A stretch of DNA of 64,000 nucleotides from an uncultured Actinomycetes bacterium. GTDB taxonomy: Bacteria > Actinomycetota > Acidimicrobiia > Acidimicrobiales > Ilumatobacteraceae. The position numbers and the translations under genes were made by a program. Under the pieces are notes generated by a model. That model saw only the letters and a program-made list of their open reading frames with translations. It made no database searches and was not told the origin of the DNA. The DNA lies in NCBI GenBank assembly GCA_963847945.1, contig CAWKBX010000009.1:583915-647914 (forward strand), written 5' to 3'. This document shows positions 23,835-58,244 of the stretch, one piece after another (within the stretch, counting starts at the first letter, position 1; each line of letters starts with the position of its first letter).

Positions 23835-25941
23835 CTATTTCGGGCGCTGGCGCTCCTCGACCCAGCGTTGCATCTGCAACTGGACATCGACCTCGCCCGG
23901 CTGACGGTGCCACTCGCCATCAGATTGCAGCTCCCAGCAGCGCACCTCAGCACCGAGTTGGAAATCGAACACCGAATCAAGCCAGAACTGATGGCGAGGG
24001 TGACGCACCGGTACCAGCGTTTCGACGCGGGAGTCCAGGTTGCGCGGCATCATGTCGGCCGAGCCGATGAGATGCAGCGGACCGCCGTCGATGTCTCCGT
24101 GACCGAACCGGTAGATACGGGAATGCTCCAAGTACCGCCCGAGAATCGAGCGGACCCGAATCGTTTCCGACACCCCCGGCACGCCGGGTCGCAGACAGCA
24201 CAGGCCGCGCACGATCAGATCGATCTGCACCCCCGCCTGGCTTGCCTCGTAGAGCGCCCGCACCATCCGCGGGTCGCCCAACGAGTTCATCTTCGCGGTG
24301 ATCCGACCGTCGGTGCCGAACGAGGCCTCGCGATCGATCAGCTCCAACAGCTGCGTGCGCAAATGCTCGGGGGCGACGAGCAGCGATCGGTAGCGCTGCA
24401 TGCGGGCAAAGCCGGTGAGATGGTTGAACAACTGCGTCGCGTCGGCGCCGATATCGGGGTCACAGGTGAAGTAGCCGATGTCCTCGTACAAGCGCGCGGT
24501 GCGCGAGTTGTAGTTTCCGGTTCCCAGATGAACGTATCGGCGCAGACCGTCGTCGTCGGCCCGCACGACCAGAACGCACTTCGTGTGGGTCTTGAGCCCG
24601 CTGAGGCCATAGACCACATGCACGCCGGCCTGTTCCAGCGTCTTGGCCCACTCCACATTGGTGGCCTCGTCGAAACGCGCCTTGATCTCGACCATCGCGG
24701 CCACCTGCACGCCTCGTTCGGCGGCGCGGATCAGGCTGCGGGCAATCGCCGAGTCGCCCGATGTGCGATACAGCGTGATCTTGATCGTCTGCACCGCCGG
24801 GTCTTCGGCAGCTTGCTCGATGAACTCCTCGACCGATGACGCGAACGACTCGTATGGATGGTGCACCAGCAGGTCACGCTCACGAATCACCGAAAAAGGC
24901 TGCGGCCGGCGGCGTCGGCGGTGGCGACGCGGCCGGCGGTGATGTTCGGCCACGGCTTGAACTTGATCTTGGGCAGATCGAGGGCGTGGAGTTCGTTGAG
25001 GAACGTCAGGTCGATCGGAGCGCGATGCCGCGTGACGTCGTCGAACGCCAAGTCGAGCTGGTCGATGAGGAGTTGCTCCACCTCACCGGGCATCTCTCGA
25101 TTGACCTCGAGGCGGACCGACCGGCCGAACCGGCGACGTTTCAACTCGGTTTCCACGGCGACGAGCAGGTCGTCGGTGTCTCCCTCTTCGAGGGGAAGGT
25201 CGGCGTTGCGCGTGACCCGGAAGGTCCACCAGCCCTCGATCTCCATGCCCGAGAACAGCGTCGGCAGTTGGGCAGCGATGACCTGCTCGATGAGCACGAA
25301 CCGATATGAGCCCGGCAGCCGGGCCAGCCGGGGAAACAGCGGCGGCACCTTGACTCGGGCGAATCGACGTTCTCCTGTCTCGGGGTTCCGCACCGAGACC
25401 GCCAGGTTGAGCGACAGGTTCGAGATGTATGGAAACGGGTGCGAGGGGTCGACGGCTAGCGGTGTCAGAATCGGAAAACCCGCTGTTCATACAGCTCTAT
25501 CAGGTGTTTTCGCTCGTCACCGGTCAGGTCACTCCACGACGCGATCGTGACACCTTGGTCTGCAAGCAACGGAAGTAGGACGTCGAGGACCAGCGTTTCT
25601 TGTCGCTCGACCAGCGGTTCGACGGCCGCCCGAATTGCCGCGAGCTGTTCGGCGGCCGACAGGCCATCGGGCGAAAGCGCCCTCGACCCGGCGTCTTGCT
25701 GACCCTTGAGCATCGCCACGCGGACCTGGAAGAACTCATCAAGGTTCGACGAGACGATGGAACCGAACTTGACGCGTTCCAGGAGCGGCACCGAGACGTC
25801 ATCGACCAGCTCAAGGACTCGGGCGTCGAAATCGAGCCAGCTCAGTTCGCGATTGATGTACAGGTCGGTGATCTCACCGATCGTAGAACGACGGTCGGCC
25901 ACGTCGCCGCGGTCTTCGGAGGGATGTAATGCGCCGTTCAT
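23835..25941 (-). CDS. ppk: polyphosphate kinase 1 (PPK1), split into 3 frames by at least 2 frameshifts
   Basis: Contiguous N-terminal, middle and C-terminal PPK1 pieces (ORFs 25465..25941, 24887..25393, 23835..24953); frame changes near 24920 and 25430. Confidence 0.85.
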
Positions 25942-26554: not shown

Positions 26555-26806
26555 ATGTATGACGACACCGAAACCAGCTGGATGGCCGACGGCAACTGCC
26601 GCAGCTACCCGCCCGCAACGTTCTTCCCCAGCGATGGTGTAGGCGTCGATCGGGCCCGGCGGATCTGCGCCACCTGCACGGTGACCACCAGTTGCCTGGA
26701 GTACGCCCTGGAGCAGCGCATCGATCATGGAGTCTGGGGTGGAGCCTCCGAGCGCGAGCGTCGTCGCATTCTCAAGCGTCGCCGTCTCGCCCTGTACATC
26801 GGCTGA
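26555..26806 (+). CDS. WhiB-family transcriptional regulator (Fe-S)
   Basis: Four-Cys pattern C..C-X2-C-X5-C, a GVWGG turn and a basic tail (RRRILKRRR). Confidence 0.85.
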   Translation: MYDDTETSWMADGNCRSYPPATFFPSDGVGVDRARRICATCTVTTSCLEYALEQRIDHGVWGGASERERRRILKRRRLALYIG

Positions 26807-27047: not shown

Positions 27048-27227
27048 CTACTTGGTCTCGGTCGACTCCTCGGCGGTCTTCTTGCCGTCGTCGAGGCCCT
27101 TCTTGAATTCCTTCTGAGCCTGACCCAGGTTCTTGGCCAACTTCGGCAGCTGCGAGCCACCGAACAGGACGAGCACCAGGACCAGAACGATGATCATCTC
27201 CTGGGGCCCAAAATCGAAAGCGAACAT
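27048..27227 (-). CDS. tatA: twin-arginine translocase subunit TatA/E (59 aa; below the ORF-track size cut-off)
   Basis: Translates to MFAFDFGPQEMIIVLVLVLVLFGGSQLPKLAKNLGQAQKEFKKGLDDGKKTAEESTETK: an N-terminal TM with the FGxxKLP hinge, an amphipathic helix and an acidic tail. Coordinates may be off by 1. Confidence 0.8.
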   Translation of the reverse strand: MFAFDFGPQEMIIVLVLVLVLFGGSQLPKLAKNLGQAQKEFKKGLDDGKKTAEESTETK

Positions 27228-27290: not shown

Positions 27291-27569
27291 TTAGGCCGTG
27301 ACGGCCGGGCGACGGGTGGTGAGGGCCCGCTGGCGACGGATGCGCCGGCGCTCCCGCTCGGACAAGCCGCCCCAGATACCGAACTTCTCGCCGTTGATCA
27401 AGGCGAACTCCAGGCAGTCGGAGCGCACAACGCAACCCCGGCAGACCTCTTTTGCTTCTCGTGTTGATGCGCCGCGTTCTGGGAAGAACAGGTCGGGATC
27501 AACCCCCAGGCAGTTGGCCTGGTCTTGCCACGACTTGTCTTCTCCATTGGCACCGCCGTAATGACTCAT
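27291..27569 (-). CDS. WhiB-family transcriptional regulator (second paralog)
   Basis: CLGVDPDLFFP...CRGCVVRSDCLEFAL, GIWGG, basic tail RRRIRRQR. Confidence 0.85.
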   Translation of the reverse strand: MSHYGGANGEDKSWQDQANCLGVDPDLFFPERGASTREAKEVCRGCVVRSDCLEFALINGEKFGIWGGLSERERRRIRRQRALTTRRPAVTA

Positions 27570-27779: not shown

Positions 27780-29795
27780 TCAGCTCGCGCGGCGAGTCTG
27801 TGACAGGTTGCGGCGATGCTCGATGAAGTCGACGAGCACATAGTCGCCGAGGTTCTCGGGGGTGGTAAAAAACGCCCGACCGCGGTTCATCGAGGTCAGC
27901 CTCTCGATGAACGATTTCAGGTAGCTGTTGGCGTCGAGCATGAAGGTGTTGATCCGGATGCCCTCGCGAGTCGCCTTCATCACCTCGCGCAACGTCTCGG
28001 TGATCGTCTCGGGGATCGGCGGGTAGTTGAAGAACACTTCGCCGTTCGGCTCGATGTGGGCGGTCGGCTCGCCATCGGTGATCATGATGATCTGCTTGGT
28101 ACCGGTCTGCTTGGCGAGCAACTGGCGAGACAGCAGAAAGCCGTGCTGCATGTTCGTGCCGTAGTCGAAGTCCCACGACACCTCGGGCAGCTGATGCGGC
28201 TCGATCACCCGGGCGACCTTCGAGAACCCGACGATGCCGAGATAGTCACGAGGAAACTGTGATGAAATCAGCGAATGCAGGGCCATCGCCACCTTCTTGG
28301 CCGGCAGAAAGTTCTCCCGCATCGGCATCGACAGTGACAGGTCGAGCATCAACACCGTCGACGAACGGGTCATCACCTCGGTGCGCTCGATCTCGAAGTC
28401 GTCGGGGGTCAACCGCACCGGAGTGCCTTGGCCCTGCCTGCGCAGTGCGTTACGGATGGTGCGCTGCAGATCGAGATTGAACGGGTCGCCGTATTCGTAG
28501 ACCTTCGACTCGTAGGCGCGCTCGTGTCCAATGCCCTGGCGGTCGATCTGATGTTGCCCGGCGTGGTCTTTCGAAAGCTTCGAGAACAGCTCGCGCAGCG
28601 CGTTCGAGCCGATCTTGCGCAGGCCTTTGGGGGTGAGTTCCAGCTTGCCCTCACGGGAGTCGATCAGCCCGGCATCTTGCAGTTGCTTGGTCAGTTGCGC
28701 CAACCGCTGCAACGAGTCGGCGGTGTGATCGCCGAGCAGATCGCGGACGCGGTCGATATCGGCCTCGGCGAGGGCGCCCGGGTTGGTGGCCCCCCGCAGC
28801 AGATTCTCGAGCTGGTCGAGGTCGCCAAGGTCTTGCATGGCCTGCAGCGACTCGTTGAACCCCATCGGGTTCGAGCCCCGCATGTTCTGCGACTTCTGCC
28901 AGCCCATCTGCGGATACATCGACTGCAAGTGCCGGCCGAGCTGGGAAGCCTGGAAGCTGAGATCCATGTCTTGCATGAGTTGCTCGTTGAGCTGCTGCAG
29001 CTGGGAGCGCTGCTCGGGCGTCATCGAGTTCATCATCTGTTCCATCGCCGCCATCTGCCGGGCGATCGATTCGAGCAGCTCATCGAGGGTTTGGGGATTG
29101 TCGGGGAAGAAGTCACCGAAGTTCTCCATGAACTCCTCGAACTTCGGATCCTGCCCTGCTTCGCGCTTTTCGATCATCTGATTGAGCGCGGCCATCATGT
29201 CCTTCATTCGGGCCATTTGCTCGGGCGAGGTGTTCTGCACCCCCTCGGTGACCTGGTCGACGAACTGCTGCATCAACTGCTCGCGCAGCTTGTCCATCAG
29301 CTCGTCGAAGCGGCGCTGCGATTCGTCGGAGGCAAAGTCGTAGCTCTGCAGCTCCCGCACCTGGCCGGCGAGATCGTTGGGCAGCATGTCGAGGCGGAAG
29401 TTGCGTTCCATCGCCGCCTCGTTGGACAACTCGGCGCGGCGCTCATCGCCAGACGCCTCGGCCGCCGCGGTCTGATTCTCGATCTCATGGCGTTCCTCGT
29501 CGATGAGGTCTTTCAGAGCCTCGGCGATCTCGGCATACACCCCGCCGAGGTCGCCCTGCTCCTGGAGTTCCTGGCGCTTCTGGCGCAGCCGCTCCATCAT
29601 CTCGCGCAGTCCCTGCACCTGGTTTCCGTCGCGATCACGCATGCCTTGCTGCAACAGCCGACGCAACGCCGAGTTGAGGTCGCCGTGATAGAGCAGATCA
29701 TCGGTGATCTCGTCGAAGATCCCCTCGGCATCGAGCTCAAAGCCCTGCTGGGAACCATCCCAACGCGAGTACCTAAACCGGGAGACCATGAGCAT
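27780..29795 (-). CDS. vWA domain protein with a long Glu/Gln-rich coiled N-terminal region (M. tuberculosis Rv0959-like)
   Basis: C-terminal vWA with MIDAS motifs (VLMLDLSLSM, IIMITDGEPT); size (671 aa) and composition match the vWA partners of ChlI/MoxR-like ATPases. Confidence 0.8.
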   Translation of the reverse strand: MLMVSRFRYSRWDGSQQGFELDAEGIFDEITDDLLYHGDLNSALRRLLQQGMRDRDGNQVQGLREMMERLRQKRQELQEQGDLGGVYAEIAEALKDLIDEERHEIENQTAAAEASGDERRAELSNEAAMERNFRLDMLPNDLAGQVRELQSYDFASDESQRRFDELMDKLREQLMQQFVDQVTEGVQNTSPEQMARMKDMMAALNQMIEKREAGQDPKFEEFMENFGDFFPDNPQTLDELLESIARQMAAMEQMMNSMTPEQRSQLQQLNEQLMQDMDLSFQASQLGRHLQSMYPQMGWQKSQNMRGSNPMGFNESLQAMQDLGDLDQLENLLRGATNPGALAEADIDRVRDLLGDHTADSLQRLAQLTKQLQDAGLIDSREGKLELTPKGLRKIGSNALRELFSKLSKDHAGQHQIDRQGIGHERAYESKVYEYGDPFNLDLQRTIRNALRRQGQGTPVRLTPDDFEIERTEVMTRSSTVLMLDLSLSMPMRENFLPAKKVAMALHSLISSQFPRDYLGIVGFSKVARVIEPHQLPEVSWDFDYGTNMQHGFLLSRQLLAKQTGTKQIIMITDGEPTAHIEPNGEVFFNYPPIPETITETLREVMKATREGIRINTFMLDANSYLKSFIERLTSMNRGRAFFTTPENLGDYVLVDFIEHRRNLSQTRRAS

Positions 29796-29827
29796 CGACC
29801 GTAGCGCAGTACTAACCTGCAGTCGCC

Positions 29828-30379
29828 GTGCGAGTACCCAGAACCTTTGCCTTTGTGGACCTTTCGGGGTTTACCAACTACACCGCGGCCTTCGGCGACG
29901 ACGCCGCAGGCCGTTTGTTGGGCGCGTTCCGAGGCTTGGTCCGCGAGATCTCGTCCGAACGCGGCGTGCGCATCGCCAAATGGCTGGGCGATGGGTGCAT
30001 GGTCGTGGCCGTCGAGCAGATCGATGCCCTCGCCTTCGTCCTCGAACTCGACCATCGTTCCACCGACCTGTGCGCCCCGCTCGCCGTGCGTACAGGCATT
30101 GCCAGTGGGTACGCCCTGCTGTTCGACGGCGACGACTACATCGGCTCGGCCGTCAACATGGCGTCGCGGCTCTGCGACGCCGCCCAGCCTCACGAAACGC
30201 TGATGCCGACCATGCAGATCGAGAAGCTTCCCGAAGGGGTCGAGGCGATCACCCACGCTCCGGTCGAGCTGCGCGGCTTCCCCGGCCCGATCGAGGTCAT
30301 GGCCTTGTCGGGCATTCCCGGGCCGACGTACCGCAACGACACCGGCGAACTGTGGACGCGACTGCGGTTCGGCCAGTAG
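29828..30379 (+). CDS. stand-alone class III adenylate/guanylate cyclase catalytic domain protein (183 aa)
   Basis: FAFVDLSGFT (metal-binding Asp), WLGDGCMV, GIASGY, GSAVNMASRL; no sensor or TM domains. Confidence 0.7.
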   Translation: MRVPRTFAFVDLSGFTNYTAAFGDDAAGRLLGAFRGLVREISSERGVRIAKWLGDGCMVVAVEQIDALAFVLELDHRSTDLCAPLAVRTGIASGYALLFDGDDYIGSAVNMASRLCDAAQPHETLMPTMQIEKLPEGVEAITHAPVELRGFPGPIEVMALSGIPGPTYRNDTGELWTRLRFGQ

Positions 30380-30391
30380 CTCCACCCACGA

Positions 30392-31472
30392 ATGACCTCT
30401 CACCCCACCGCCACCGATCAATCACCCATCCCCCCGTTCATCAAGGGCGCGACGATCTCGCTGCGCGCCCCCAACGACGGCCTGGCGAGATTCGAAGAAG
30501 ATGCTGCCCTCCTCGCCTCGGTCGGCATCAGCCGGCTGCGCGTCGGGTTCGACTGGGCGACGTTTCAGCCTCGCCCCGGGGGACTCGACGACGACTGGTG
30601 CGAGTCCCTCGGCACCCTCATCGACGCCGCCTCGGCGGTCGGCATCGGCATCGTCGCCGGACTCAACGACGGACCACTGCCCGGCTGGTTCGTCGACGAC
30701 GGTGGCTTCGGCGATGCCAAGCACGCTGGACGCTGGTGGCCCCGGTGGGTCGAAGCGGTCGCCGAAACCTTCGGTGATCGCCTCGCCGGTTGGGTCCCGA
30801 TGAACCGACCACTGCTACTGGCCAAGCCGTGGGCCGACGACCCCAAGCGCTACGTCGAGGCCTTGACGATCACCGCCGCGGCCTGGCGCGACGCGTGGCG
30901 CATTCTGCCGCGGTGGTCCGCCGGTGGCGACCGACCTCAGCCTGCGCATCGTCCGGGCGGTCGATCAGACCATCCCGGCCGCCGATGACGCCCGGCGCGA
31001 GGACCATCTACGTTGGCGCATGTGGCTGCGAGCCCTGCGCGATGGCGTCGTCGCCTTCCCCGACGGCCCCGAGCGGCGCATCGAGGAGCTCGGCAGCTCG
31101 CTCGATGTGCTGGGCTTCTCGACCACATGCGACATTCCGGTCAACGCTCCGCTCACCACCGAGGGGCTCGAACGTTGGGAACATCGGTTGGGCACGATGT
31201 TGCGACGCCTCGCGGAGGAGGGGCCGGATCGTCCACTCGCTCTGACGTTGAAGGTCGTCCACCCCGACGACGATGATCGGCGCATCATCTTCGAATGGTC
31301 GGCGCGAGCCATCGTCGAAGCTCGCCGTGACGGGATTGCCCTCGATGAGGCCTATCTCGACCCGGCGATCGACCATCGGCCCGGGAGCCGCGAGGGCGGG
31401 GTGCTCGATCGGGATCGCGACCTGAAGGCAAGTTCCTCAGTGTGGTTGGCCAACACGCCCAGCGGTGGCTAA
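30392..31472 (+). CDS. glycoside hydrolase family 1-like TIM-barrel protein; one frameshift near 30935 and a possibly altered acid/base motif (NRP for NEP)
   Basis: RVGFDWATFQPRPG resembles the GH1 RFSISWSRILP signature; WVPMNRP stands where W-x-x-NEP is expected; the gene continues in ORF 30924..31472. Confidence 0.45.
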
Positions 31473-31562
31473 CCCCGACCCGATCATCTAGGCTTGCGAT
31501 CGGCTTAATGCGATAACGTCGGTCAGTGACTGCACGTCGTCAACAGGCAAGGAGGACTGATC

Positions 31563-32438
31563 TTGAAGTGGATCGTACTGATCCTGCTCGTTGCTGCGAT
31601 TGGGGTCGCGGTGTCGGCATGGTTGAAGAGCAGCCGCCAAACGATCGCGGTCACGTCCCCGGTTGAGCGCATCTTCGTGTACCAGAAACGACTTCGGCAG
31701 ACCGCTCCACTCGGGTTTTTCCACGGCCTGGTCGACGATCCGCTGACCGGTCGGGGGCGCACCGACCCCGGCAAGCAGCACCTCAAGATGGGGATCCACT
31801 CGTTCATCCGCCCGGTCATCGCCGTCAAGTGCTCGTCGGGTCAATACGCGATCACATTCTGGTCCGACGATGAGGTGAGTTGGAAGGCCGCCAAGGGGTC
31901 ACACACGCAGGGTCCGATCCCGGTGAAAACGGCCGACCTCATTCCGGCCAAGGTCGCCCTGCGGGCGTCGTATGCGATTATCGACAGCCCTGATCAGCTG
32001 TTGAAGATTCAGATGCCCGAGGCGTTCGCAGAGCGAGCGATCGCCGACGTCCTGGTCGCCACCCGCGAGGCGATCGGGCGGCGCGACAGCCTCGACTACG
32101 CCACGATCGGCCGCGAAGACTTGTCGGGCGAGCTGTTCGCCGACATCGACGCCCGGTTGAAGAAGCGCGGCCTGGTGTTGCGTGACCTGTGGCTCGGCAA
32201 CATCGAGTTCGATCCGGAAGTGCAGCAGGCGATCAAAAATCGCTTCAATGCCATGACCCTGGCCGACATCCCGCGGATCGCCGCTGGCGGTCAAGCTGTT
32301 GCCAACCGAGTGATCGCCGAGAGCGTGTCACCGCAGCTCATCGAGCTGATCCGCGCCGAGCGATCGGGCAACCCGTGGAACTACTGGGTGGCCCACATGG
32401 CCGAACTCGAAGGCAGCCCCAAGTCGCTCCAACGCTGA
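31563..32438 (+). CDS. SPFH/band-7 (stomatin/prohibitin-like) domain membrane protein
   Basis: N-terminal TM (MKWIVLILLVAAIGVAVSAWL) followed by an SPFH-like core. Confidence 0.65.
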   Translation: MKWIVLILLVAAIGVAVSAWLKSSRQTIAVTSPVERIFVYQKRLRQTAPLGFFHGLVDDPLTGRGRTDPGKQHLKMGIHSFIRPVIAVKCSSGQYAITFWSDDEVSWKAAKGSHTQGPIPVKTADLIPAKVALRASYAIIDSPDQLLKIQMPEAFAERAIADVLVATREAIGRRDSLDYATIGREDLSGELFADIDARLKKRGLVLRDLWLGNIEFDPEVQQAIKNRFNAMTLADIPRIAAGGQAVANRVIAESVSPQLIELIRAERSGNPWNYWVAHMAELEGSPKSLQR

Positions 32439-32545
32439 CAAATCGCTGGCAAATCGGGTCTCTTCCCCGATTTGCCAGCTGTCGTTGTCGTCGATCGTTG
32501 TCGGGAGTCCACGGGCGGAGCCCCCCGTGTCAGGGCCCCGTGTGA

Positions 32546-33986
32546 CTACGCCTTGGCGTGGTAGCCGAGGATCGCCTTGGCCTCGAGGAACTCCATGAGC
32601 CCGTGCTTGCCGAACTCGCGGCCGTTGCCCGACTGCTTGTAGCCGCCGAACAGTGGCGTTCGAGTCGGTGCCGGCACCGTTGAGGTGCACGTTGCCCGAC
32701 CGCATGCGGCGAGCCACCGCGCGGGCCCGGTCGGCGTCGGTCGACGAGACGTAGCCGGCCAGGCCGTAGACGGTGTCGTTGGCGATGCGCACGGCGTCGT
32801 CCTCATCGTCGTAGCCGATGATCGACAGCACCGGGCCGAAGATCTCTTCGCGGGCGATCGTCATGTCGTTGGTGACGTTGGCGAACACCGTCGGCTTGAC
32901 GTAGAAGCCGGCTGTCGAGCCCGTCGGGACGGCCGGGGCCACCGGCGACGAGCGTGGCGCCCTCGTCGATGCCGGTCTGGATGAGCCGCTGGATCTTGTC
33001 GAACTGCAGCCTCGGACGCGACCGGGCCGATGACGGTGCCCTCGGCGTTCGGGGTCGCCGACGGCGATCTTGTCGGCGGCGGCCCCGGCGATCGCGGCGG
33101 CCTCGTCCATCCGGTCGTGGCGGCACCAGCATGCGGGTTCCGGCGTTGCACGACTGGCCCGAGTTGACGCACATCGGCCGACGTCACGGGCGACCACCGC
33201 TGCGAAGTCGACGTCGTCGAGGATGATGTTGGCCGACTTGCCACCGAGTTCCTGCGCGACACGCTTGACGGTCGGGGCGGCGTTGCGGGCAACTTCGATC
33301 CCGGCGCGGGTCGAGCCGGTGAACGAGACCATGTCGACGTCGGGATGCGACGACAGCGCCGCACCGACGGTCGGGCCGTCGCCGTTGACCAGGTTGAACA
33401 CGCCGGCCGGCACGCCGGCCTCGTGCATCACTTCGGCGAAAACGATGGCGTTGAGCGGCGCGACTCTCCGACGGCTTGAGCACCATCGTGCAGCCGGCCG
33501 CGAGCGCCGGGGCGACCTTGGCGGCGATCTGGTTGAGCGGCCAGTTCCACGGCGTGATGAACGCGCAGACCCCGATCGGCTCGTACTCGATGCGGCTGGT
33601 GCCGACGTCTTCGGCGAACTCGAACGCCTCGAGCGCCTTGGCCGTCGCCATGAAGTGGCCGATGCCCGACGGGGCCTGGGCCCGGTTGGCCAGCGAACGT
33701 CGGCGCGCCCATCTCGCAGCTGACCGCGGCGGCGATGTCGCCCATGCGCGCCTTGTAGACCTCGATGATCCGGCCGAGCAGGGCGAGGCGATCTTCACGC
33801 GTCGTCTGCGAGAAGGTGTCGAACGCAGCCTTCGCGGCGGCGACGGCGGCGTCGACATCGGCCTGGTTACCCAGGGCGATGGTGCCGACGACCTGCTCGG
33901 TTGCCGGGTTGACGACGTCGAGCGTGGCGCCGGACGACGGGCTCGACCCACTGGCCGTTGATGTAGAACTTCTGGGCGTTGTCCAT
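32546..33986 (-). pseudogene. NAD(P)-dependent aldehyde dehydrogenase, at least 7 frameshifts
   Basis: A full-length ALDH can be read only by hopping frames (ORFs 33428..34030, 32861..33364, 32803..33174, 32546..32806 and others). Motifs are conserved across the shifts: [52 protein letters not shown]. Confidence 0.85.
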
Positions 33987-34040
33987 GCCCGCAGACTACG
34001 CGCCGGTTCCGGCCGATCCGCACGTGGCACAGGCCCGAGG

Positions 34041-35459
34041 TCAGCTCCGGCTGCGGTATGCCGCCCGGGCGCCGGAGGAATCCTTGTTCAGCCGCTTCGA
34101 CAGGTGCAGCCCCTCGAGGATGAACTCGACGGCGGCAGCAACGGCGGCCGGGGACTCGTCACCGGCGGTCAAGCCGACGACTGCGGGACGCAGGGCCGGG
34201 ATCTGCTCGATGAGCCGGGCGGCGTCGACCGACGAGACGTCTTCGCCGGTGTGGGCGACGATGCCTTCCTCGAACGAGGTGACCACGTCACGAATACCCT
34301 CGGTCGCTACAACATCGCGATAGACGGTGAGGACCGCGCCGCGCAGCATGTTCTCGATGATCGAACCCTCACGGCCGTCTTCCAGCGACTCGATCTCGAC
34401 CTTGCCCGAGGTCGATGCGGGTAGGGCATTGAGATCGGAGATCCGCGGGACGACCTCGCTCTCGCCCGCCCGCAGACCGCGGCGAACGGCGTTGGCGCAG
34501 AGCACCTCGATATTGCTGACCGACAACCGCACCGACACGCCGCTGCGCTGATTGACCTGGCTGCTGGCGCGGGCCATGTGCGAGAAGGTGGCGACGATGC
34601 GCTCCATGTACTCGGGAACGTGGACCTGCACGTTGCCGATGCTCGCCGGACGAGCCTCCTGGCGCATGATCGCGATCTCGGTCGACACGTCGAGCGGATA
34701 GTGGGTGCGGATCTGACTGCCGAAACGATCCTTCAACGGAGTGATGATCCGACCGCGGTTGGTGTAGTCCTCGGGGTTGGCCGAAGCCATCAGCAGCACA
34801 TCGAGCGGCAGCCGGATCTTGTAGCCGCGGATCTGCACGTCGCGCTCCTCGAGCACGTTGAGCAGACCAACCTGGATGCGTTCGGCCAGGTCAGGGATCT
34901 CGTTGATAGCGAAGATGCCGCGGTTGGTGCGGGGTACCAGGCCGTAGTGCAACGTCAGTTCGTCGCTCAGGTAGCGACCCTCGGCGACCTTGATCGGGTC
35001 GACCTCGCCGATCAGGTCGGCGATCGAGGTGTCGGGGGTGGCCAGCTTCTCGCCGAAGCGCTCGTCGCGATGCACCCAGGAGATCGGGGTGTCGTCACCG
35101 TTGTCGGCGACCAGCGCCTTGGCATGGCTCGAAACCGGATTGTATGGGTCGTCGTTGATCTCGCTACCGGCGACGATGGGCATCCATTCGTCGAGCAGGC
35201 CAGTGAGGGAGCGGATCATGCGGGTCTTGGCCTGGCCGCGTTCGCCGAGGAAGATCACGTCGTGACCGGCGAGGATCGCGTTCTCGAGTTGTGGCATGAC
35301 GGTGTCTTCGTAGCCGAGCACGCCCTCGAACAGCGGGTGCCCGGCGGCGATGCGAACGACCGCGTTGCGACGGAGTTCTTCCTTGACGGGCACCGATTGC
35401 CAACCAGATGCACGTAGCGCACCGAGGGTGTTCGGACGGGACTGGTCAGCTTCGGCCAT
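34041..35459 (-). CDS. ChlI/BchI-MoxR-like AAA+ ATPase (Rv0958-like, putative Mg-chelatase-type)
   Basis: Walker [11 protein letters not shown], Walker B/sensor [11 protein letters not shown], arginine finger region [10 protein letters not shown]; 472 aa. Confidence 0.85.
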
Positions 35460-36359: not shown

Positions 36360-36957
36360 CACCACTCCGACTCGACCGACCCCCCGGACTTCAGCCCGGC
36401 AACTCGTCTCGCGCCACCACCGGACGCCACTTTGGAGCACAATCACGCTCCCAGCGTGACCGCACTCCCCGAAACCCGAAACCCGAGCCCCCGCGGCTGG
36501 GCGGGGCGGCGACTTGGCACTGGGCGATCTCGGATATGGTCCCAGGCGTGCAGCGGCGTGACCTCGAGAATGGACTGCCAGCCCCCACCGGGGGTTGGCG
36601 AGCCTGCCCCGGGGCTCCCCCGGGGTGTCAAGTGTTGCTTGAGCATTCCATCGCCGGCGCGAGACGGTGCTGGCGCACCGCACCACGCCCGCACGGCCAG
36701 TACAGTCGAGGCGCGTCGCTGCACCCATGAATCGGCGGGATCAGATCATCACCCAGGCGGTCGCCGGAGCGTTTCTCGCCGGCGAGTGGGAGCCACGGCT
36801 GATGGTTCGCCGTGCCGGCCGAGCGCTGGGCGATCGCCGGACCACCTGGTTGACGCCGCTCGCCACGTTGGTCGTCCACGCCTTTCCCATTGCCCCTCAC
36901 GACGCTCCTCGCGAGTTGGGTGCCGTCATCTGGGCGAGTGGAATCATCCAGGAACAA
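36360..36957 (+). ncRNA. candidate retron msr/msd-type non-coding RNA region upstream of the RT (boundaries not determined)
   Basis: About 600 nt without a convincing CDS, carrying several G-rich hairpins (ccccc-acc-ggggg at 36581-36593, ccccggggctcccccgggg, tcaag-tgttg-cttga at 36629-36645, ctggc..gccag at 36669-36700) and a short tandem gaaacccgaaacccga. Position and orientation match a retron ncRNA; a1/a2 repeats could not be assigned by eye. Confidence 0.25.
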
Positions 36958-38082
36958 ATGCGCGCCGACACGATGGCGCTCCGACCGCAGTGGCGAATCC
37001 ACCCCGCTACGGCACCGATTCGAATGAGAGCGACGCCCTGGCCCGTTGCCGAGATCGACTCGCTCGGTGACTTGGCCGAGCATCTCGGGCTCTCCACCGG
37101 GCGCCTCCGGTGGTTCGCTGACGTCCGATCGTGGGAGCGGGCTGTCGGTGTCGAGCCTCTGCGGCAGTACCGCTACCGGTGGCTGCCGTCGTCGAGCGGC
37201 TTTCGGCTGATCGAGGCGCCCAAGGGCACGTTGCGACACATCCAACGAGTGTTGCTCCGCACCATCCTCAACCATGTACCCATCCACGATGCCGCCCACG
37301 GGTTCCATGTCGGCCGATCGATCCACGGCTTCGTCGCCCCACACGTGGGCGCACCGGTGCTGATCAAGGCCGACCTGCGGGCGTTCTTCACCTCGATCAC
37401 GGCCGGACGCGTCTTCGGCCTGTGGCGGCGGATGGGCTACGCGGAGCCGGTCGCCCACGTCTTGACCGGGCTGACCACGAACGCAGTCCCCTCGTCGGTT
37501 CTGCGTCGATCGCCCGCCGCCGATCACCACCTCGCCGCGCTCCTTCGTGGCCCGCACCTCCCGCAGGGAGCCCCGACGTCACCCGCCTTGGCCAATCTGC
37601 TGGCATTTCACCTCGACGTGAGACTCGATGCGATGGCGCGGTCGTTCGGGGCGAACTACACGCGCTATGCCGACGACCTCGCCTTCTCGGGGGCCGCGAC
37701 GCTGGAAAAACGACAGCTCGCCCTGCTGCGGCTGGCCGAGGAGATCGTGCGCGACGAGGGTTTCCGGCTCAACCCGCTCAAGACCGCGGTCGCCGGCCCC
37801 GCACAGCGACATCGACTTGCCGGCATCGTCGTCAACGCTCGACCGAACATCGATCGACGAGAATACGACCAGCTCAAGGCCGAGTTACACGATGCCGTCA
37901 CCAACGGACCGGTCGTCGCCAACCGGCGCGACAACCCGCATTTTCGCGACCACCTGCTCGGCCGCATCGGCTGGGTTGCCGAGCTCAATCCGCCACGGGC
38001 CGAACGACTGGAGGCGATGTTCGACCGCATCACATGGGATACGACGGGAAAACGACGACGGCGTGAGTGTGTGACGCCGTGA
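36958..38082 (+). CDS. retron-type reverse transcriptase
   Basis: Collinear with Ec86-type retron RT: WPVAEIDSLGDLAEHLGLSTGRLRWF; SGFRLIEAPKGTLRHIQRVLLRTIL; VAPHVGA (NAxxH-like); DLRAFFTSI; LPQGAPTSPALANL; YTRYADDLAFS; GFRLNPLKT; HRLAGIVVN (VTG-like). No maturase or endonuclease domains. The start is taken at ATG 36958 (aGGAAcaaATG); the ORF is open back to 36667. Confidence 0.85.
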   Translation: MRADTMALRPQWRIHPATAPIRMRATPWPVAEIDSLGDLAEHLGLSTGRLRWFADVRSWERAVGVEPLRQYRYRWLPSSSGFRLIEAPKGTLRHIQRVLLRTILNHVPIHDAAHGFHVGRSIHGFVAPHVGAPVLIKADLRAFFTSITAGRVFGLWRRMGYAEPVAHVLTGLTTNAVPSSVLRRSPAADHHLAALLRGPHLPQGAPTSPALANLLAFHLDVRLDAMARSFGANYTRYADDLAFSGAATLEKRQLALLRLAEEIVRDEGFRLNPLKTAVAGPAQRHRLAGIVVNARPNIDRREYDQLKAELHDAVTNGPVVANRRDNPHFRDHLLGRIGWVAELNPPRAERLEAMFDRITWDTTGKRRRRECVTP

Positions 38083-39643: not shown

Positions 39644-40067
39644 TGGACTACTGCTCCGTTTGCGTGATGAGGGGTGTCAAGGATCGGACGCGCTCGGGGG
39701 CTCCCGGGCACAAGGTCGACCATCCTCAGCGCGCCTGCGGGCCGCGCCAAACTCCACGCTCAGGTTCCCGCAACGGGAGGCCTGAGCAGGACTTCGTGGG
39801 TGATCGTGGCCCCATCGTACCCTCACAACGCGGCATCGATCACATGTCGAACGGTCATCTCGGTCGAGTCATGCGGGTGCCGATGAGACGGGTTTCCGGT
39901 CCGCTCATTCCACCCGGCCCGACGGCGCCGGTGACGTCTGCTGCGTCGATGGGTTGGGCACACGGCGATCTGATCGAAACGCCTCAACCCGAGATTCACG
40001 TCGCGGATGATCAGCGCCTTCCACGGATCGCCCATCACACCGAAGGAACCTCGGCAACTACCAGGCG

Positions 40068-40448
40068 ATGATTGACGGGTTGGCTTCGCCGTTCGAATAC
40101 CGATTCCTCGGCGATCATCCGTTGAGCGGCCGACGAACCAGCACCGTCACGATCGATCTATGGTGGCAGCGAATCTTCCGGCTCCTGCCGAACGGGAAGT
40201 TCACGATCCATCAGATCGTCGTGCAGGGCAACCCGTTCAAGACGCGCATCGCCGTGCGGTCGACCATCAGCGCAGCCTTGGCGTCGGGTGACGGGTACTC
40301 CAACGACGTGATGCAGTTCAGGCGGCTCCGGCTCGGCAAGCTCACCCGCATCGAAACGATGGAGGACACCGCCAAGTTCGAGCGCTACCTCACGACGCTC
40401 GACCCTGCCACCCACCCGGACGCCATCGCCCCGCCGATCAACGACTGA
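40068..40448 (+). CDS. hypothetical protein (NTF2/SnoaL-like fold suspected)
   Basis: 126-aa ORF; the pattern and size suggest an NTF2-like protein; weak. Confidence 0.35.
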   Translation: MIDGLASPFEYRFLGDHPLSGRRTSTVTIDLWWQRIFRLLPNGKFTIHQIVVQGNPFKTRIAVRSTISAALASGDGYSNDVMQFRRLRLGKLTRIETMEDTAKFERYLTTLDPATHPDAIAPPIND

Positions 40449-40528
40449 CCCATACTGGTCGGTCGCGCAGCAGTCGGGCCCGTACCCATCTCCCCAGTTG
40501 GTTCCGCTCGGAACCTACGGCCGAGCGA

Positions 40529-42520
40529 TCAAACGAGCAGGGGGTTGGTGACGACGTCGACGAGCGCCGGACCGGGGTGAGCCAGGGCGGTCGCGATGGC
40601 CGAGTCGAGGTCGGTTGGGTCGGTGACGCGGATGCCGCGGGCACCGCAGAGCTCGGCGAAAGCGGCGAAGTCGGGGTTGTGGAGCGAGGTCTGCCACACG
40701 TCCCAGTGGGCGGCCCGTTGCTCTTTGGAGATCTTGCCCAACTCGCTGTTGTCGAGCACCACGTGGGTGATGTTCATGCCGTACTTCACCGCGGTGGTCA
40801 TCTCCATGGCGTATTGACCGAGCCCGCCGTCGCCACTGATCGACACAATCTGGCGGGTGTCACCGACTGCCGCCCAGGCCCCCATCGCCGCCGGGAGAGC
40901 GAAGCCGATCGAGCCGAGGTAGCCCGACATCACCAGATCCTGGCGGCCTGAGGCCTCGAAGTAGCGACCAAATGAGTAGGTGTTGTTGCCCACGTCGACG
41001 GCGATGACGGCGTTGGGGTCGATCAGCCGGGTGAGGCTCGCCATCACCGCGGCGGCCCCGATGCCATGCGCTGCATCGTCGGCGGCGCGCTTCGACTTCT
41101 CGGCTCGCCACAGGGACCACCGTTGGGCGACCTCGGCCCGCTGATCGACCTCGGCCCGCGGGTCGCTGTCGACTCGGACTTCGAGCGCGGCGATCATCGC
41201 CCGAGCGGTGACAGCCACATCGCCAAGCAGACCGACCTCGACGCCGTGGAACCGGCCGATCGACATCGGGTCGTCGTCGATCTGGATCGTCGGTTTGTAC
41301 GACGCAATCCCGGTGTGATTCGAGAAGCTGGCACCGAACACCACCAACAGATCGCTCTCGTTCATGAACCAACTGGCCACGGGCGTACCCGACCGCCCGA
41401 GCACACCACACCCGAGCGGATGGCTGTCGCTGACGAGCCCCTTGGCCTTGAACGTCGTCCCAACCGGTGCACCGAGCCGTTCGGCGAGATCCATGATCGC
41501 GGTCATCTGCCCGCGGCAGCCCGCTCCCACAACGATCATCGGGCGTCGCGCCGTGCGCATCATCTCGAGCGCGCGGTCGAGTTCGGCGGCCGGTGGCGCA
41601 GTGGCTCGTGAGGCGAGACGACCCGCCGGCGTGCCGGCCGCCGCATCGGCCGCTACCGGGTGGTGCTGCACCTCGTCGGGCAGAATCAAGTGAGCCACGC
41701 CGCGCCCGACAATCGCGTGCTTCATCGCCAGACCGGCGAGTTCGGCATGGTCGGAGCCGAGCGCGACGGTCTCGCTGTAGAGCGTCACATCGGCGAACGC
41801 CGCTTCGAGGTCGGTGTCCTGGAATGCTCCACGGCCCCGTACCTTCGACGGCACCTGACCCGAGATGGCGAGCACCGGTGAGCGGTCCTCGCGGGCGTCA
41901 TACAAGCCGGTAAGCAGGTTGGTCGAGCCCGGCCCCGCGATCCCGAAGCACACCGCCGGGCGACCGGTGAGCTTCCCGTAGGCCGACGCAGCGAACGATG
42001 CTGCGCCCTCATGGCGGATGCCGACGAAGGTGAGTTCGCCGCGTTCGGCGGCCTTGCGCATCGCGTCGGCGAACCCGAGGTTGGAATGGCCGACCATGCC
42101 AAACGCGTGGGTGAGTCCCCAGTTGACCAGCGTCTCGACGAGTACATCGGCGACCGTTCGCGGCTGCACCGGTTCAGGCGGGAGGGCAACGTAGACACCG
42201 TCGGCGCGGGTTTCCACGGCGAAGCAGGCCGGCGCGTCGGAGAACCCCGTAGGAGGCTTGCCGGTCACGGGTGAGTAGTCGTAGCCGTGCCACGGGCACC
42301 GCAGCCAGCCGTTCTCGATCGATCCTTCGCCGAGCGGTCCACCCTGGTGCGGACAGGCATTGTCGAGGCAGCCGTACTGGCCGTCGTGATGCGTCATCGC
42401 CAGCGAGCGCCGCCCGACCGAGACGGTGGTGACCCGACCCTCGGGCAGCTCGTCGGGGCCGAGCACTCGGTGCCAGGAGGTACCGCCGGAGTCGCCTGCG
42501 GTGGTGACGTTGTCGTTCAC
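40529..42520 (-). CDS. Rieske [2Fe-2S] domain fused to a thiamine-diphosphate enzyme (acetolactate synthase/pyruvate oxidase family)
   Basis: N-terminal Rieske CPHQGGPL-x16-CPWHGYDY; then TPP enzyme N-terminal (GIAGPGSTNLLTGLYDA...GQV), central and TPP-binding (ISGDGGLGQY...NN) domains. Confidence 0.85.
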   Translation of the reverse strand: MNDNVTTAGDSGGTSWHRVLGPDELPEGRVTTVSVGRRSLAMTHHDGQYGCLDNACPHQGGPLGEGSIENGWLRCPWHGYDYSPVTGKPPTGFSDAPACFAVETRADGVYVALPPEPVQPRTVADVLVETLVNWGLTHAFGMVGHSNLGFADAMRKAAERGELTFVGIRHEGAASFAASAYGKLTGRPAVCFGIAGPGSTNLLTGLYDAREDRSPVLAISGQVPSKVRGRGAFQDTDLEAAFADVTLYSETVALGSDHAELAGLAMKHAIVGRGVAHLILPDEVQHHPVAADAAAGTPAGRLASRATAPPAAELDRALEMMRTARRPMIVVGAGCRGQMTAIMDLAERLGAPVGTTFKAKGLVSDSHPLGCGVLGRSGTPVASWFMNESDLLVVFGASFSNHTGIASYKPTIQIDDDPMSIGRFHGVEVGLLGDVAVTARAMIAALEVRVDSDPRAEVDQRAEVAQRWSLWRAEKSKRAADDAAHGIGAAAVMASLTRLIDPNAVIAVDVGNNTYSFGRYFEASGRQDLVMSGYLGSIGFALPAAMGAWAAVGDTRQIVSISGDGGLGQYAMEMTTAVKYGMNITHVVLDNSELGKISKEQRAAHWDVWQTSLHNPDFAAFAELCGARGIRVTDPTDLDSAIATALAHPGPALVDVVTNPLLV

Positions 42521-44156
42521 GGATGCAGTCCTCCATAGGGAACACCGGCCAGATGGTGCATCTCACGGTCGAACGTCGTGAGATCGTCGATGCACAGCTC
42601 CGACAGATGGTGATGGCCGCAGGCTCGGGCGAGCACGGTCATCAGCTCGACCGTCGCCTCAAGGAAACGGGTGAGCCGACGAGCCGACTCGTCGACCACC
42701 AGCCGCTGGCGAAGACCGGGTTTCTGCGTGGCGATGCCGACCGGGCAGTTGTCGCTGTTGCACGCCCGCATGCCAATGCAACCGATCGCCTGCAACGCGG
42801 CATTGGAGATCGCCACCGCGTCGGCACCGAGCGCGAGCGCCTTCACGAAATCGGTATGGGTACGCAGACCGCCGGTGATCACGAGCGTCACCGCGGATCC
42901 CGATCGGTCGAGATGCCGACGGGCCCTCGCCAACGCCGGAATGGTCGGCACCGAAATGTGGTCGCGGAACAACACCGGCGCAGCTCCCGTCCCCCACCCC
43001 GACCATCGAGGATCACGTAGTCGACCCCGATCTCAAGCGCGGCATCGAGATCGGCCTCGATGTGCTGCGCCGACAGCTTCGCTCCGATCGGAATACCGCC
43101 GGCTGTCTCGCGCACCATCGCCGCGACCTCGCGGTAGTCGCCGGTCGTGCGCAGATCGGGGAAGGTGGCCGGCGAGACCGCCGGTTGGCCCTCGGGCAGA
43201 CCGCGCACCTCGGCGATGCGCCCGACCACTTTGTTGCCCGGGAGATGCCCGCCGGTGCCGGTCTTGGCGCCCTGGCCGAACTTGAAATGGAAGGCCTGAA
43301 CGTCGCGCACCTTGTCGAGCGACCAACCAAATCGGGCCGAGGCGAGCTCATAGAAGTAACGGCTGTTCTCGGCGTGCTCCTCGGGCAACATCCCACCCTC
43401 ACCCGAACAGATGCCGGTGCCCGCGCCCTCGGCACCGCGGGCCAGCGCGACCTTCGCTTCGAGCGACAGTGAACCGAAGCTCATATCGCTGACGAACAAC
43501 GGGATCTTCAGGTGCAGCGGTTTGGCCGCCGTACCGCCGATGGTGATGTCGGTGGCGACCGTCTCGTCATCGAGGAGCGGTCGCTTCGCCAGCTGGGCGG
43601 TGACGATCTGGATCGAGTCCCACAGCGGGAGCCGATCACGGGGCACGCCCATCGCCGCCACCGGGCCATGGTGCCCGACCTTCGACAACCCGTCGATCGA
43701 GAGCTGACGGATCTGGCCGACGAAGGGTTCCTCGGGCGCGCCGTGGGGATCTTGGAACGCCCCTTGGTAGGCATCGCGGTCGTACGGCTGGGGATGCTCA
43801 CGCTCCCAGGCGGCGATCTCGTCGGCGTCGACCATGAGCTGATCGCTGACCTCGTCGACCCACGACGTGAAGAGGTGGAGCTGCTGGTCGTTGTCGTACG
43901 CGCTGATCCCGGTGCGCAACGAGTAGTCCCAACCGTGCAGCCCGCAGACCAGGTCGTCGCCGCGGACCGTGCCGTCTGCCATCAGTGCGCCGCGGTGCAG
44001 GCATCGGCCGTAGAGGACTGAATGCTCGTCACCGAAACGGACGATCACCAGATCGACATTGGCCACGATCGCACCCGTCGGCGTGCGATCACTCAACTCG
44101 CTCCACCGGGCGACGGACACTGGTGTCATTGAGGTCGTTGGCGTCGTTGTTGTCAT
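42517..44156 (-). CDS. Rieske [2Fe-2S] domain fused to a glutamate synthase domain-2-like FMN/Fe-S oxidoreductase; one frameshift near 42990
   Basis: Rieske CLHRGALMADGTV-x-CGLHGWDY followed by GltS-type motifs (GSLSLEAKVALARGA, SGEGG, FKFGQGAKTGTGGHLPG). The C-terminal part (GGLRTHTDFVKALALGADAV..CPVGIATQ) continues in ORF 42517..42975. 4-nt overlap with the downstream Rieske-TPP gene. Confidence 0.8.
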
Positions 44157-44174
44157 GGCGGGAATCGCTCCTGG

Positions 44175-44888
44175 TCAGACAAGCCGACGATAGCCGACGA
44201 GCAGGAATGCGGTGCCCGCACCGATGACATCGGCCGACTCTCCGGCGAGTTCGCTGCGGGCGCGGAACGCGCCGAACGGGGCGTTCCAGAACCCGGCGTC
44301 GCCGGGGCGGTCGGCGGTCCACGGCCCGACATAGAGATACGGCTCATTGCAGAATCCGTCGCCGGGCGAGCCGCCGAGATTCACCCGTCGATCGGCATGA
44401 GCTTGGGCCTCGATCGCCACATCGAAGTGTTCGGGCCACAGTCGGGGCAGCGTGGGTCGGGCGGCGGCGGGCAGGTCGACCAGCACCCGGTCGAGGATCG
44501 CCGCAATCGTTGCGAACCATCCGGTGACGTCGGCTGCGCCGACGCCGTCGAGAACGATCGGAGCATCAGCGTCGCCGACCGGCGGCGTGTCGCGACCGAC
44601 ATCGAGCGGTTCGGCAAGGTCGACGCCGGCGAACGCGGCGAGCTGCGCGAGCGAGGACCCATTGATCTCGATCGACCCGATGGAAGCCTCGCCGGGTGCG
44701 TCGGACTCGACGATCAGATGGGCTCCCGACACCCTCACCCGCCGTCCTACCGGAGGGAGATCGGGCGTGCCGAAACCCCCGGGAGCGACGCGCAATGAGA
44801 ACCGGGTGGAAGCCGCTACCCGGGCCCGAGCAACCACATGCACGGCGACGCTGTGCAACGATTCGCGGGCGGCTGAGAAGGTGTCCAT
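44175..44888 (-). CDS. hypothetical protein (first gene of the Rieske-fusion operon)
   Basis: 237-aa ORF, co-oriented and 19 nt upstream of the Rieske-GltS gene; no family recognised. Confidence 0.4.
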   Translation of the reverse strand: MDTFSAARESLHSVAVHVVARARVAASTRFSLRVAPGGFGTPDLPPVGRRVRVSGAHLIVESDAPGEASIGSIEINGSSLAQLAAFAGVDLAEPLDVGRDTPPVGDADAPIVLDGVGAADVTGWFATIAAILDRVLVDLPAAARPTLPRLWPEHFDVAIEAQAHADRRVNLGGSPGDGFCNEPYLYVGPWTADRPGDAGFWNAPFGAFRARSELAGESADVIGAGTAFLLVGYRRLV

Positions 44889-50783: not shown

Positions 50784-50813
50784 GATCCCTGACTCCTTCC
50801 CCGACTGGCGAGC

Positions 50814-58242: not shown

Positions 58243-58244
58243 TC

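Follow-up and report, generated by a model that had tools for sequence, protein, structure and literature searches.

The question raised by this locus is why two genes that are neighbors in most other lineages lie more than 4 kb apart in one bacterium. The genes encode a ChlI-like AAA+ ATPase and a vWA protein that resemble Rv0958 and Rv0959 of Mycobacterium tuberculosis, and they are found in a 64,000-nt stretch of contig CAWKBX010000009.1 from an uncultured member of the Ilumatobacteraceae (the window, meaning the whole stretch that was analyzed). An earlier note on this DNA had described the two genes as a conserved two-gene module split by an insertion or rearrangement with accompanying gene decay. 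Its open reading frames (ORFs) exist where it had placed them, and the module is indeed interrupted by four genes, which are a cyclase, a GH1-like, and an SPFH gene on the plus strand and an aldehyde dehydrogenase (ALDH) gene on the minus strand. The history of the split, on the other hand, appears to be a different one. We consider it likely that the partners were separated long ago and in steps, that they remain functional in trans, and that the frameshifts in this region are unrelated to the split. Below, the loci of relatives carry L numbers and public proteins carry P numbers. The locus is composed as follows.

27780-29795, minus strand: Rv0959-family vWA protein, 671 aa, intact (ORF, translation, and the identical protein P0121)
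29796-29827: divergent spacer between the vWA and cyclase genes, 32 bp (sequence)
29828-30379, plus strand: predicted minimal class III nucleotidyl cyclase domain protein, 183 aa, intact (Pfam, NCBIfam, and PDB alignment)
30392-31472, plus strand: GH1-like TIM-barrel-type gene, frameshifted (Pfam, NCBIfam, and alignment)
31563-32438, plus strand: SPFH/Band 7 protein, 291 aa, intact (Pfam Band_7, E 6.4e-9)
32445-32479: hairpin with a perfect 14-bp stem and a 7-nt loop, between the convergent SPFH and ALDH genes
32546-33986, minus strand: ALDH reading frame, 1,441 nt, frameshifted (three-frame reading, MAFFT, and Pfam Aldedh)
33987-34040: spacer between the ATPase stop and the ALDH start, 54 bp, at the ATPase-side end of the stretch lacking in L004
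34041-35459, minus strand: ChlI/BchI-like AAA+ ATPase, 472 aa, intact (ORF, Pfam, and PDB matches)

The ATPase and vWA genes are separated by 4,245 bp (29796-34040). A codon-position hidden Markov model (codon HMM) gives this whole stretch to the four named genes, and since the spacers across it measure just 32, 12, 90, 107, and 54 bp, there is no space for a further unrecognized gene.

To place this arrangement among its relatives, we used a scan with one genome per species, which returned 80 ATPase loci at 54-91% identity. The closest are metagenome-assembled genomes of Acidimicrobiia/Ilumatobacteraceae, and the distant ones belong to Chloroflexota/Dehalococcoidia, Rokubacteria, Gammaproteobacteria, and Rubrobacter. 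Gene order was read by tblastn with the window proteins. We found the vWA gene downstream of the ATPase gene on the same strand in 62 loci, the window counted, and the effective gap between them was at most 160 bp in 31 of the 62 and frequently between -4 and +40 bp. Adjacent pairs occur in Chloroflexota, Rokubacteria, Gammaproteobacteria, and Rubrobacter as well as in several basal Acidimicrobiia; outside the latter class, adjacency is the norm. One Dehalococcoidia/Tepidiforma group has no vWA gene within 10 kb of the ATPase gene, and in three loci the vWA gene is inverted or lies upstream of the ATPase gene. Since adjacency extends to other phyla, it is the ancestral condition, and the pair is a conserved two-gene module, as had been proposed and as this comparison across several phyla confirms. 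In the ancestral state, the vWA gene comes next after the ATPase gene and shares its strand, and the two are separated by -4 to about 100 bp, a distance that suggests one operon, possibly with translational coupling. It is the adjacency within this operon arrangement that fails in the window.

What lies at the ATPase-vWA junction in other Acidimicrobiia was then compared with a neighbor-joining tree of the ATPases. The junction contents are nested on this tree. A cyclase alone, with gaps of about 600-730 bp, occurs in eight loci (L011, L007, L008, L005, L002, L003, L009, and L037), a cyclase and a GH1-like gene occur in L001 and L019, and these two together with an SPFH gene occur in L004, whose ATPase is 91% identical to that of the window. 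All four genes are present in the window, L081, and L084. The loci L081 to L084 were reached via the closest intact ALDH proteins and comprise three metagenome contigs (L081-L083) and a contig of GCA_031371195.1 (L084). Each has an intact 477-aa ALDH gene, and their alignment with the window is collinear (82-85% nucleotide identity). L081 and L084 match its gene order and orientation exactly, while L082 and L083, which are shorter and break off within the SPFH gene, carry the ATPase gene, the ALDH gene, and the start of the SPFH gene ordered as in the window. Nucleotide identity to L081 is 0.81-0.92 across the block, and identity to both L081 and L084 is as in the flanks. L004, on the other hand, lacks the ALDH gene alone: in a blastn comparison, 1,615 bp of the window (32439-34053) correspond to 41 bp in L004, and that stretch is the ALDH gene. 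Orthologues of the ALDH are found in unrelated contexts in P0020 and P0028 (81-84% identity) and in the gammaproteobacterial P0046 (75%). Since the ALDH gene is absent from L004 and has orthologues in unrelated neighborhoods, it is the last of the four genes to have arrived and belongs to the terminal clade alone.

The nested content is a direct observation, and from it we infer an order of gains in which a divergent cyclase gene would have settled beside the vWA gene, followed by the GH1-like gene, the SPFH gene, and finally the ALDH gene directly downstream of the ATPase gene. Other Acidimicrobiia carry different cargo at the same place, including DsbA-like, AbiEi/restriction endonuclease-like, EamA, PhyH, SpoU, AdoMet decarboxylase, and MaoC genes. 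With at least 10 gene families occurring there across the class, the junction is evidently permissive for gene gain within Acidimicrobiia. It resembles gene-insertion hotspots in its fixed flanks and lineage-variable cargo (those same 10 or more families) but differs from them in that it has no tRNA, integrase, transposase, or att-like repeat and in that its cargo has been inherited vertically over long periods. The arrangement in the window, which at least three other public assemblies share, is old and vertically inherited, neither a recent insertion nor a mobile element.

Several observations weigh against this stepwise reading or complicate it. The GH1-like gene is the sole junction gene in scattered, deeper-branching Acidimicrobiia (L042, L022, L026, L015, L021, L012, and L017), which makes the order of the cyclase and GH1-like gains uncertain, and it stays near the ATPase gene even where the vWA gene is inverted or missing (L028 and L034). 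Instead of repeated gain there may have been repeated loss, with an uncertain number of losses, and the ATPase tree is a single-protein tree without support values. A separate rival reading reverses the polarity, so that separation is ancestral and adjacency arose by repeated loss of the intervening genes. The scattered GH1-like genes of the deep Acidimicrobiia speak for it to the extent that they need several losses under any scenario. However, near-zero gaps are the rule in all other sampled phyla and in basal Acidimicrobiia, and the clades that have the cyclase, SPFH, and ALDH genes are nested and become smaller from one gene to the next. We therefore regard reversed polarity as highly improbable.

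Equally, a recent single insertion or rearrangement, in which a mobile or horizontally acquired 4.2-kb block entered the module and its genes are now decaying, is very unlikely. Such an event would account for a pair that is adjacent elsewhere, for the total G+C of the ALDH and GH1-like genes (0.68-0.69 versus 0.62-0.65 in neighboring genes), and for the frameshifts in both of these genes. But it is difficult to reconcile with junction content that is nested along the ATPase tree, with the same gene order in L081 and L084, where the ALDH and GH1-like genes are intact, and with a nucleotide identity across the block like that of the flanks. Direct repeats, which the note had proposed to look for at the block borders, were not detected above chance in a repeat search of the 27-36.5 kb region. 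The longest word shared by the borders at 29.8 and 34.0 kb is 5 nt, a length reached by 300 of 300 shuffles, and the longest word shared by the borders of the ALDH gene is 8 nt, reached by 90 of 300. A Pfam scan of the block ORFs found no mobility-gene domain (integrase or transposase), and no tRNA was found in the window. Three of the four block genes are also typical in composition: the G+C content at third codon positions (GC3) is 0.80-0.84 in the cyclase, SPFH, and GH1-like genes and 0.84-0.85 in the ATPase and vWA genes. The ALDH gene alone stands out with 0.944, the regional maximum, compared to 0.85 and 0.885 in its orthologues and 0.80-0.86 in neighboring genes. The lower total G+C of the vWA gene could be traced to its Glu/Gln/Met-rich composition (GC2 0.36). 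Finally, genes far from the block, namely ppk and the acyl-CoA dehydrogenase, GltS-like, amidohydrolase, and P450-like genes, are frameshifted as well, so that the proposed link between decay and split finds no support.

These frameshifts require an explanation of their own. In a MAFFT alignment with the intact genes of L081 and L084, the ALDH gene shows nine frame changes, made up of eight single-base insertions and one single-base deletion; the gene had rightly been called frameshifted, and the earlier count of at least seven is corrected to nine. The Pfam Aldedh match is split over two window ORFs. With the indels removed, the gene reads through 477 codons with no internal stop and no larger lesion, and the stitched 477-aa protein is 92% identical to P0001 over 100% of its length. 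The corrected ALDH is 92.9% identical to that of L081 and 92.2% identical to that of L084, and these two are 93.1% identical to each other. The GH1-like gene carries one 1-nt insertion near 30908 that divides it into ORFs at 30392-30988 and 30924-31472, whereas relatives have one ORF of 353-374 aa (356 aa in L004; intact in L081 and L084). Outside the block, ppk (23838-25884, minus strand) carries two 1-nt deletions (~25478 and ~24897), each beside a T-run, and is a single ORF of 682-704 aa in L081, L084, and L004. The individual ALDH lesions and the other frame-split genes are as follows, with approximate break positions in brackets.

~33942, 33694, 33464, 33121, 33049, 33007, 32911, and 32654, minus strand: 1-nt insertions in the ALDH gene (alignment)
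~33176, minus strand: 1-nt deletion in the ALDH gene (alignment)
1-881 (~254), plus strand: acyl-CoA dehydrogenase gene, frame-split (Pfam domain split)
42517-44156 (~43004), minus strand: Rieske plus glutamate-synthase-like (GltS-like) gene, frame-split (Pfam domain split)
~48561-49573 (~48950 and ~49083), minus strand: Amidohydro_2 gene, frame-split (Pfam domain split)
~50124-50800 (~50261 and ~50390), minus strand: P450-like gene, frame-split (heme-binding and neighboring motifs over three frames; no Pfam match)

At least five genes outside the block are thus frameshifted, and the frameshifts are private to the window sequence and probably unrelated to the split. A further frameshift candidate lies near 44891.

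We slightly favor errors left uncorrected in the consensus of a long-read metagenome assembly over true pseudogenes as the source of these frameshifts. A long-read origin is suggested because P0121, which is identical to the vWA protein of the window, is recorded on a 1.69-Mb contig of an uncultured actinobacterium. The alternative, to which we give somewhat less than an even chance, is that the frameshifts are real and that the ALDH, GH1-like, ppk, and other genes are pseudogenes in a genome with a single-base, insertion-biased indel spectrum. That spectrum rests on the 12 indels that can be aligned to intact orthologues (nine in ALDH, one in GH1-like, and two in ppk): every one is exactly 1 nt, and nine are insertions and three deletions. 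This is the opposite of the deletional bias in bacterial pseudogenes that Mira, Ochman, and Moran are said to have described in 2001. There are no nonsense codons or larger lesions, we estimate from branch counts about 17 excess ALDH substitutions against nine indels, and the GC3 of the ALDH gene is raised and not eroded. The T-runs beside the ppk deletions and the very long contig, which probably implies long reads, likewise argue for error. On the other hand, nine indels fall in the 1.44 kb of the ALDH gene and none in the 4.9 kb of the ATPase, vWA, SPFH, and cyclase genes, so that lesions gather in particular genes and spare neighbors of equal length, as expected from selection on living genes versus a dead one. 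Most ALDH insertions lie outside homopolymers, and every broken gene encodes an accessory metabolic enzyme. Selection was measured as the ratio of changes at codon positions 1 and 2 to changes at position 3 on the window branch, and this ratio is raised in the ALDH gene (0.29, compared to 0.13 and 0.18) and in the GH1-like gene (0.26, compared to 0.12 in L081). These last four points weigh against assembly error. The ALDH ratio, though raised, is far from 1. A uniform sequencing-error model was ruled out, with 9 of the 12 aligned indels in one 1.44-kb gene, and a purely biological decay model is also unsatisfactory.

The ALDH gene is unusual in other respects. On the window branch it has fewer GC-to-AT changes than any neighbor, a further point for assembly error, and about half of their synonymous change. 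L081 and L084 are equally distant from it, but the flanks are nearer to L081. This pattern of composition and distance hints at a different history, either recombination or a mixed-strain consensus, exactly where the nine indels sit. A search of metagenome contigs for a near-identical strain, with an exact-flank pattern that left the base at ALDH indel 5 optional, gave 0 matches. Since single-base frameshifts are widespread in the window, "pseudogenes" there are not interpretable biologically before the reads are checked.

Both partners can be assigned to families. The vWA protein has a long Glu/Gln-rich N-terminal part followed by a C-terminal vWA domain with a metal ion-dependent adhesion site (MIDAS), which is complete in the translation (D485-x-S487-x-S489, T547, and D574, within LDLSLS ... 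GT ... TDGE). Pfam VWA_2 matches residues 480-576 with 22.9 bits, under the gathering score of 27. P0121, a public protein of 671 aa that is 100% identical to it, carries the domains PF27532 (Mb0984_helical) and PF27098 (Rv0959_3rd), which are present in 120 of the 120 listed vWA homologues and likewise in the orthologues of L081 and L084. These domains bear out the Rv0959-like assignment made in the earlier note, and the JGI and UniRef names concur. An AlphaFold2 model built with 34 close homologues was poor (predicted local distance difference test score, 54) and was used solely for its C-terminal third, which matches vWA folds. In this part, residues 480-655 alternate between strand and helix, and all good Foldseek matches in the PDB are vWA/MIDAS domains, including NorD of NorQD complexes. 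The same low-confidence model predicts that the N-terminal 375 residues are all-helical. Neither Pfam nor NCBIfam gave a match to an AAA+ module in the vWA protein.

The ATPase passes the Pfam cut-offs for AAA_5, Sigma54_activat, and Mg_chelatase, and its sole solved relatives by sequence are ChlI/BchI (8osf, 1g8p, and 6l8d, with E values of 1e-10 to 2e-8). It scores 42.2 bits against the NCBIfam BchI-ChlI model TIGR02030, which has a cut-off of 467, and it also matches the BchD and putative cobaltochelatase models weakly. The MoxR models are missed, with 20.0 versus 27 bits for AAA_3 and 18.4 versus 27 bits for bpMoxR. Of the former description as ChlI/MoxR-like, the ChlI-like part is therefore upheld by Pfam and the PDB, while at the family level the model scores do not support the MoxR-like part. 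The motifs comprise a Walker A (GERGQAKT, residues 72-79), a Walker B variant (IFAINE), a sensor-1 (ANPED), and a conserved Arg in GVSVR. In 83 of 83 family sequences, that of the window included, Walker A (as GERGQAK[TS]), the Asn-Glu of Walker B, sensor-1, and this Arg do not vary. In Walker B (residues 182-190), Asn-Glu replaces the usual Asp-Glu, with the pattern hhhhNE-L/I-PD, in all 83 sequences across phyla.

On domain grounds, the locus would be a member of the widespread Rv0958/Rv0959-type two-gene module that fails in adjacency alone. In M. tuberculosis, the two genes, which we take to be adjacent in the H37Rv annotation, encode proteins of about 460-470 and 670 aa, again a ChlI-like ATPase and a partner with a helical N terminus and a C-terminal vWA domain. 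The tie between the window ATPase and Rv0958 is suggested by the family of its partner, its size, and its likeness to ChlI. The difference is that the genes in the window are 4.2 kb apart with four genes between them, three of which are on the opposite strand. Rv0958 and Rv0959 are labeled "magnesium chelatase" and conserved hypothetical, respectively, with COG1239 and COG4867, and the SEED name for this type is "long form Mg-chelase associated protein with vWA domain." The Rv0958 orthologue of Mycobacterium marinum, of 1,392 bp, is likewise annotated as magnesium chelatase (PMC11237697). In the literature on Rv0958/Rv0959, COG4867, and Mb0984, we found mentions in screens and tables and no functional study.

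BchI/ChlI of magnesium chelatase provide the closest AAA+ structures to the window ATPase, and the vWA protein resembles the C-terminal half of ChlD in that a MIDAS vWA domain comes after an acidic/helical region. However, the ATPase score is about tenfold under the equivalog cut-off (42 versus 467 bits), and the ATPase differs from ChlI/BchI in its invariant Walker B Asn-Glu and in about 200 extra C-terminal residues. Moreover, the vWA protein does not have the N-terminal AAA+ module of BchD/ChlD. No ChlH/BchH/CobN-like subunit was seen among the scanned ORFs, although no exhaustive search of the window was aimed at it. Identity with magnesium chelatase was rejected on these scores, the partner lacking AAA+, and the unseen H subunit. 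In the order of an AAA+ ring gene and then a vWA/MIDAS adaptor gene, the module also resembles NorQ-NorD, CbbQ-CbbO, and RavA-ViaA; NorD vWA domains (9qhe and 9qh6) are among the best fold matches of the window vWA protein, and CbbO shares COG4867 (PMC2942843). The differences from MoxR systems are that the window ATPase falls under the MoxR models and that its partner has the Rv0959-specific N-terminal helical domains. By family models the pair is thus not a MoxR system, though by analogy it probably works like one.

Of the four intervening genes, the cyclase falls under the cut-off of Pfam Guanylate_cyc (E 0.003) and matches the NCBIfam LipJ cyclase domain (E 8e-8) and, in the PDB, the catalytic domain of Rv1264 (E 4e-12) as well as Ma1120, LipJ, and CyaB. 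It keeps the residues that align to the catalytic positions of Rv1264 (D11, K51, D54, D102/103, N110, and R114), which have metal-binding, substrate-binding, and transition-state roles there. By its catalytic-domain match and these retained residues, it is predicted to be a class III cyclase. The GH1-like gene matches Pfam Glyco_hydro_1 (E 1.9e-7) and, far under cut-off, NCBIfam BGL (45 bits), with matches that span just about 115 N-terminal residues. The SPFH protein has orthologues at the same position in L004, L081, and L084, is 92.8% identical to that of L081, and has a window-branch ratio of 0.15. The hairpin between the SPFH and ALDH genes folds as RNA with -31.4 kcal/mol (z = -8.3; 0 of 200 shuffles were equally stable), which suggests a terminator-like function. 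When the pair and block were searched with PADLOC, there was no credible defense match; the vWA protein (WH_III-A) and the cyclase (PycC) gave marginal sub-threshold ones.

Since three opposite-strand genes lie between the partners, co-transcription of the ATPase and vWA genes is impossible in the window. We suggest that the vWA gene probably now has a promoter of its own, marked by a TANNNT box in the 32-bp spacer that it shares with the cyclase gene. On the plus strand, the -10-like TAACCT (29813-29818) lies 9 nt before the GTG of the cyclase gene, and on the minus strand, TACGGT (29803-29798) lies 2 nt before the first ATG of the vWA gene and 8 nt before a second ATG at codon 3, where most vWA homologue alignments begin. 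In an alignment of this spacer from 14 loci (13 relatives and the window), a TANNNT upstream of the vWA gene is present in most, and a TANNNT 9-10 nt before the cyclase start was found in 8 of 8 relatives examined (L081, L084, L001, L002, L004, L005, L007, and L019). The vWA mRNA would then likely be leaderless or near-leaderless, as actinobacterial transcripts are.

Both partners would still work, now in trans, since both are under strong purifying selection and keep an intact Walker A, Walker B (NE), and MIDAS. Compared to L081, the ATPase is 93.6% and the vWA protein 97.3% identical, with a nucleotide identity of about 84-89% for the two genes, and their window-branch ratios are 0.07 and 0.11, respectively. 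If the pair acts like BchI/BchD, NorQ/NorD, and CbbQ/CbbO, the MIDAS site of the vWA protein would hold a client, which the ATPase ring would remodel at the expense of ATP. Two points weigh against this functional side of the reading. The case for independent vWA transcription comes from short -10-like hexamers alone, and a scan for sigma-70 promoter and terminator consensus detected nothing in the spacer and did no better than with shuffles. The partnership of the ATPase and vWA protein, for its part, is a putative one.

A further explanation concerns the intervening genes themselves, which could be recruited as working accessories of the pair (the cyclase and perhaps the GH1-like and SPFH genes), for example with cyclic AMP (cAMP) control of the vWA gene, which would make the cluster a larger working unit in Ilumatobacteraceae-like bacteria. 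The cyclase gene lies head to head with the vWA gene across 20-70 bp in 13 related loci, and its product, which shows 97.7% identity to that of L081, is better conserved than the ATPase; its window-branch ratio is 0.06. The GH1-like gene, as noted above, keeps its place beside the ATPase gene in many Acidimicrobiia even without a regular vWA neighbor. However, the cyclase and GH1-like genes accompany the pair inside one clade only, where common descent suffices as an explanation, in every other lineage the pair functions in their absence, and other lineages carry quite different cargo at the junction. In the cyclase/vWA spacer alignment, moreover, no CRP-type, palindromic, or other shared regulatory site was seen. 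We therefore consider recruitment unlikely. It is doubtful, too, that the machine of Ilumatobacteraceae-like bacteria has been rewired, with the vWA gene expressed from a back-to-back promoter shared with the cyclase gene and with the cyclase, perhaps joined by the GH1-like and SPFH proteins, as an accessory or regulator; this we hold to be quite improbable.

Other features of the window surround the locus. Downstream of the vWA gene lie two WhiB-family genes (26555-26803, plus strand, and 27294-27569, minus strand) and a TatA gene (27051-27227, minus strand), which are 92-100% identical to their counterparts in L081 and L084 and belong to the same conserved neighborhood. On the other side, a retron-type reverse transcriptase (36667-38082, plus strand) is the source of the only strong PADLOC matches (RT_other, 529 bits over nearly full length); it matches the NCBIfam retron St85 model with 154 bits, under the cut-off. 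A 650-nt stretch at 36394-37043 is non-coding according to the codon HMM. In L081 and L084, too, the reverse transcriptase gene is found upstream of the PhyH/ATPase genes. An RNA domain of a group II intron (RF02003, 91.6 bits) was found at 10712-10848 on the minus strand, inside a block of about 2 kb (8906-10885) that is non-coding by the codon HMM and holds a reverse transcriptase-like remnant (9471-9869, minus strand); this block resembles a group II intron that has degraded or been frameshifted. Finally, about 19.9 kb (39756-59651) are absent from L004, the closest genome locus, which has 84 bp there. This stretch carries amidohydrolase, P450, ThuA, SDR, RIO kinase, and GltS-like genes, several of them frameshifted.

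For the Rv0958/Rv0959 family, our findings mean that the partners need not be co-transcribed and that operon-based function prediction would miss the partner in these genomes. In one actinobacterial class, the junction between them tolerates and keeps foreign genes. The split is of modest value to annotators and illustrates a permissive junction, and it is neither surprising nor mechanistically new. The head-to-head arrangement of the cyclase and vWA genes is the sole lead here that could become interesting: if the rewiring were true, it would provide, through cAMP, a first functional handle on this family.

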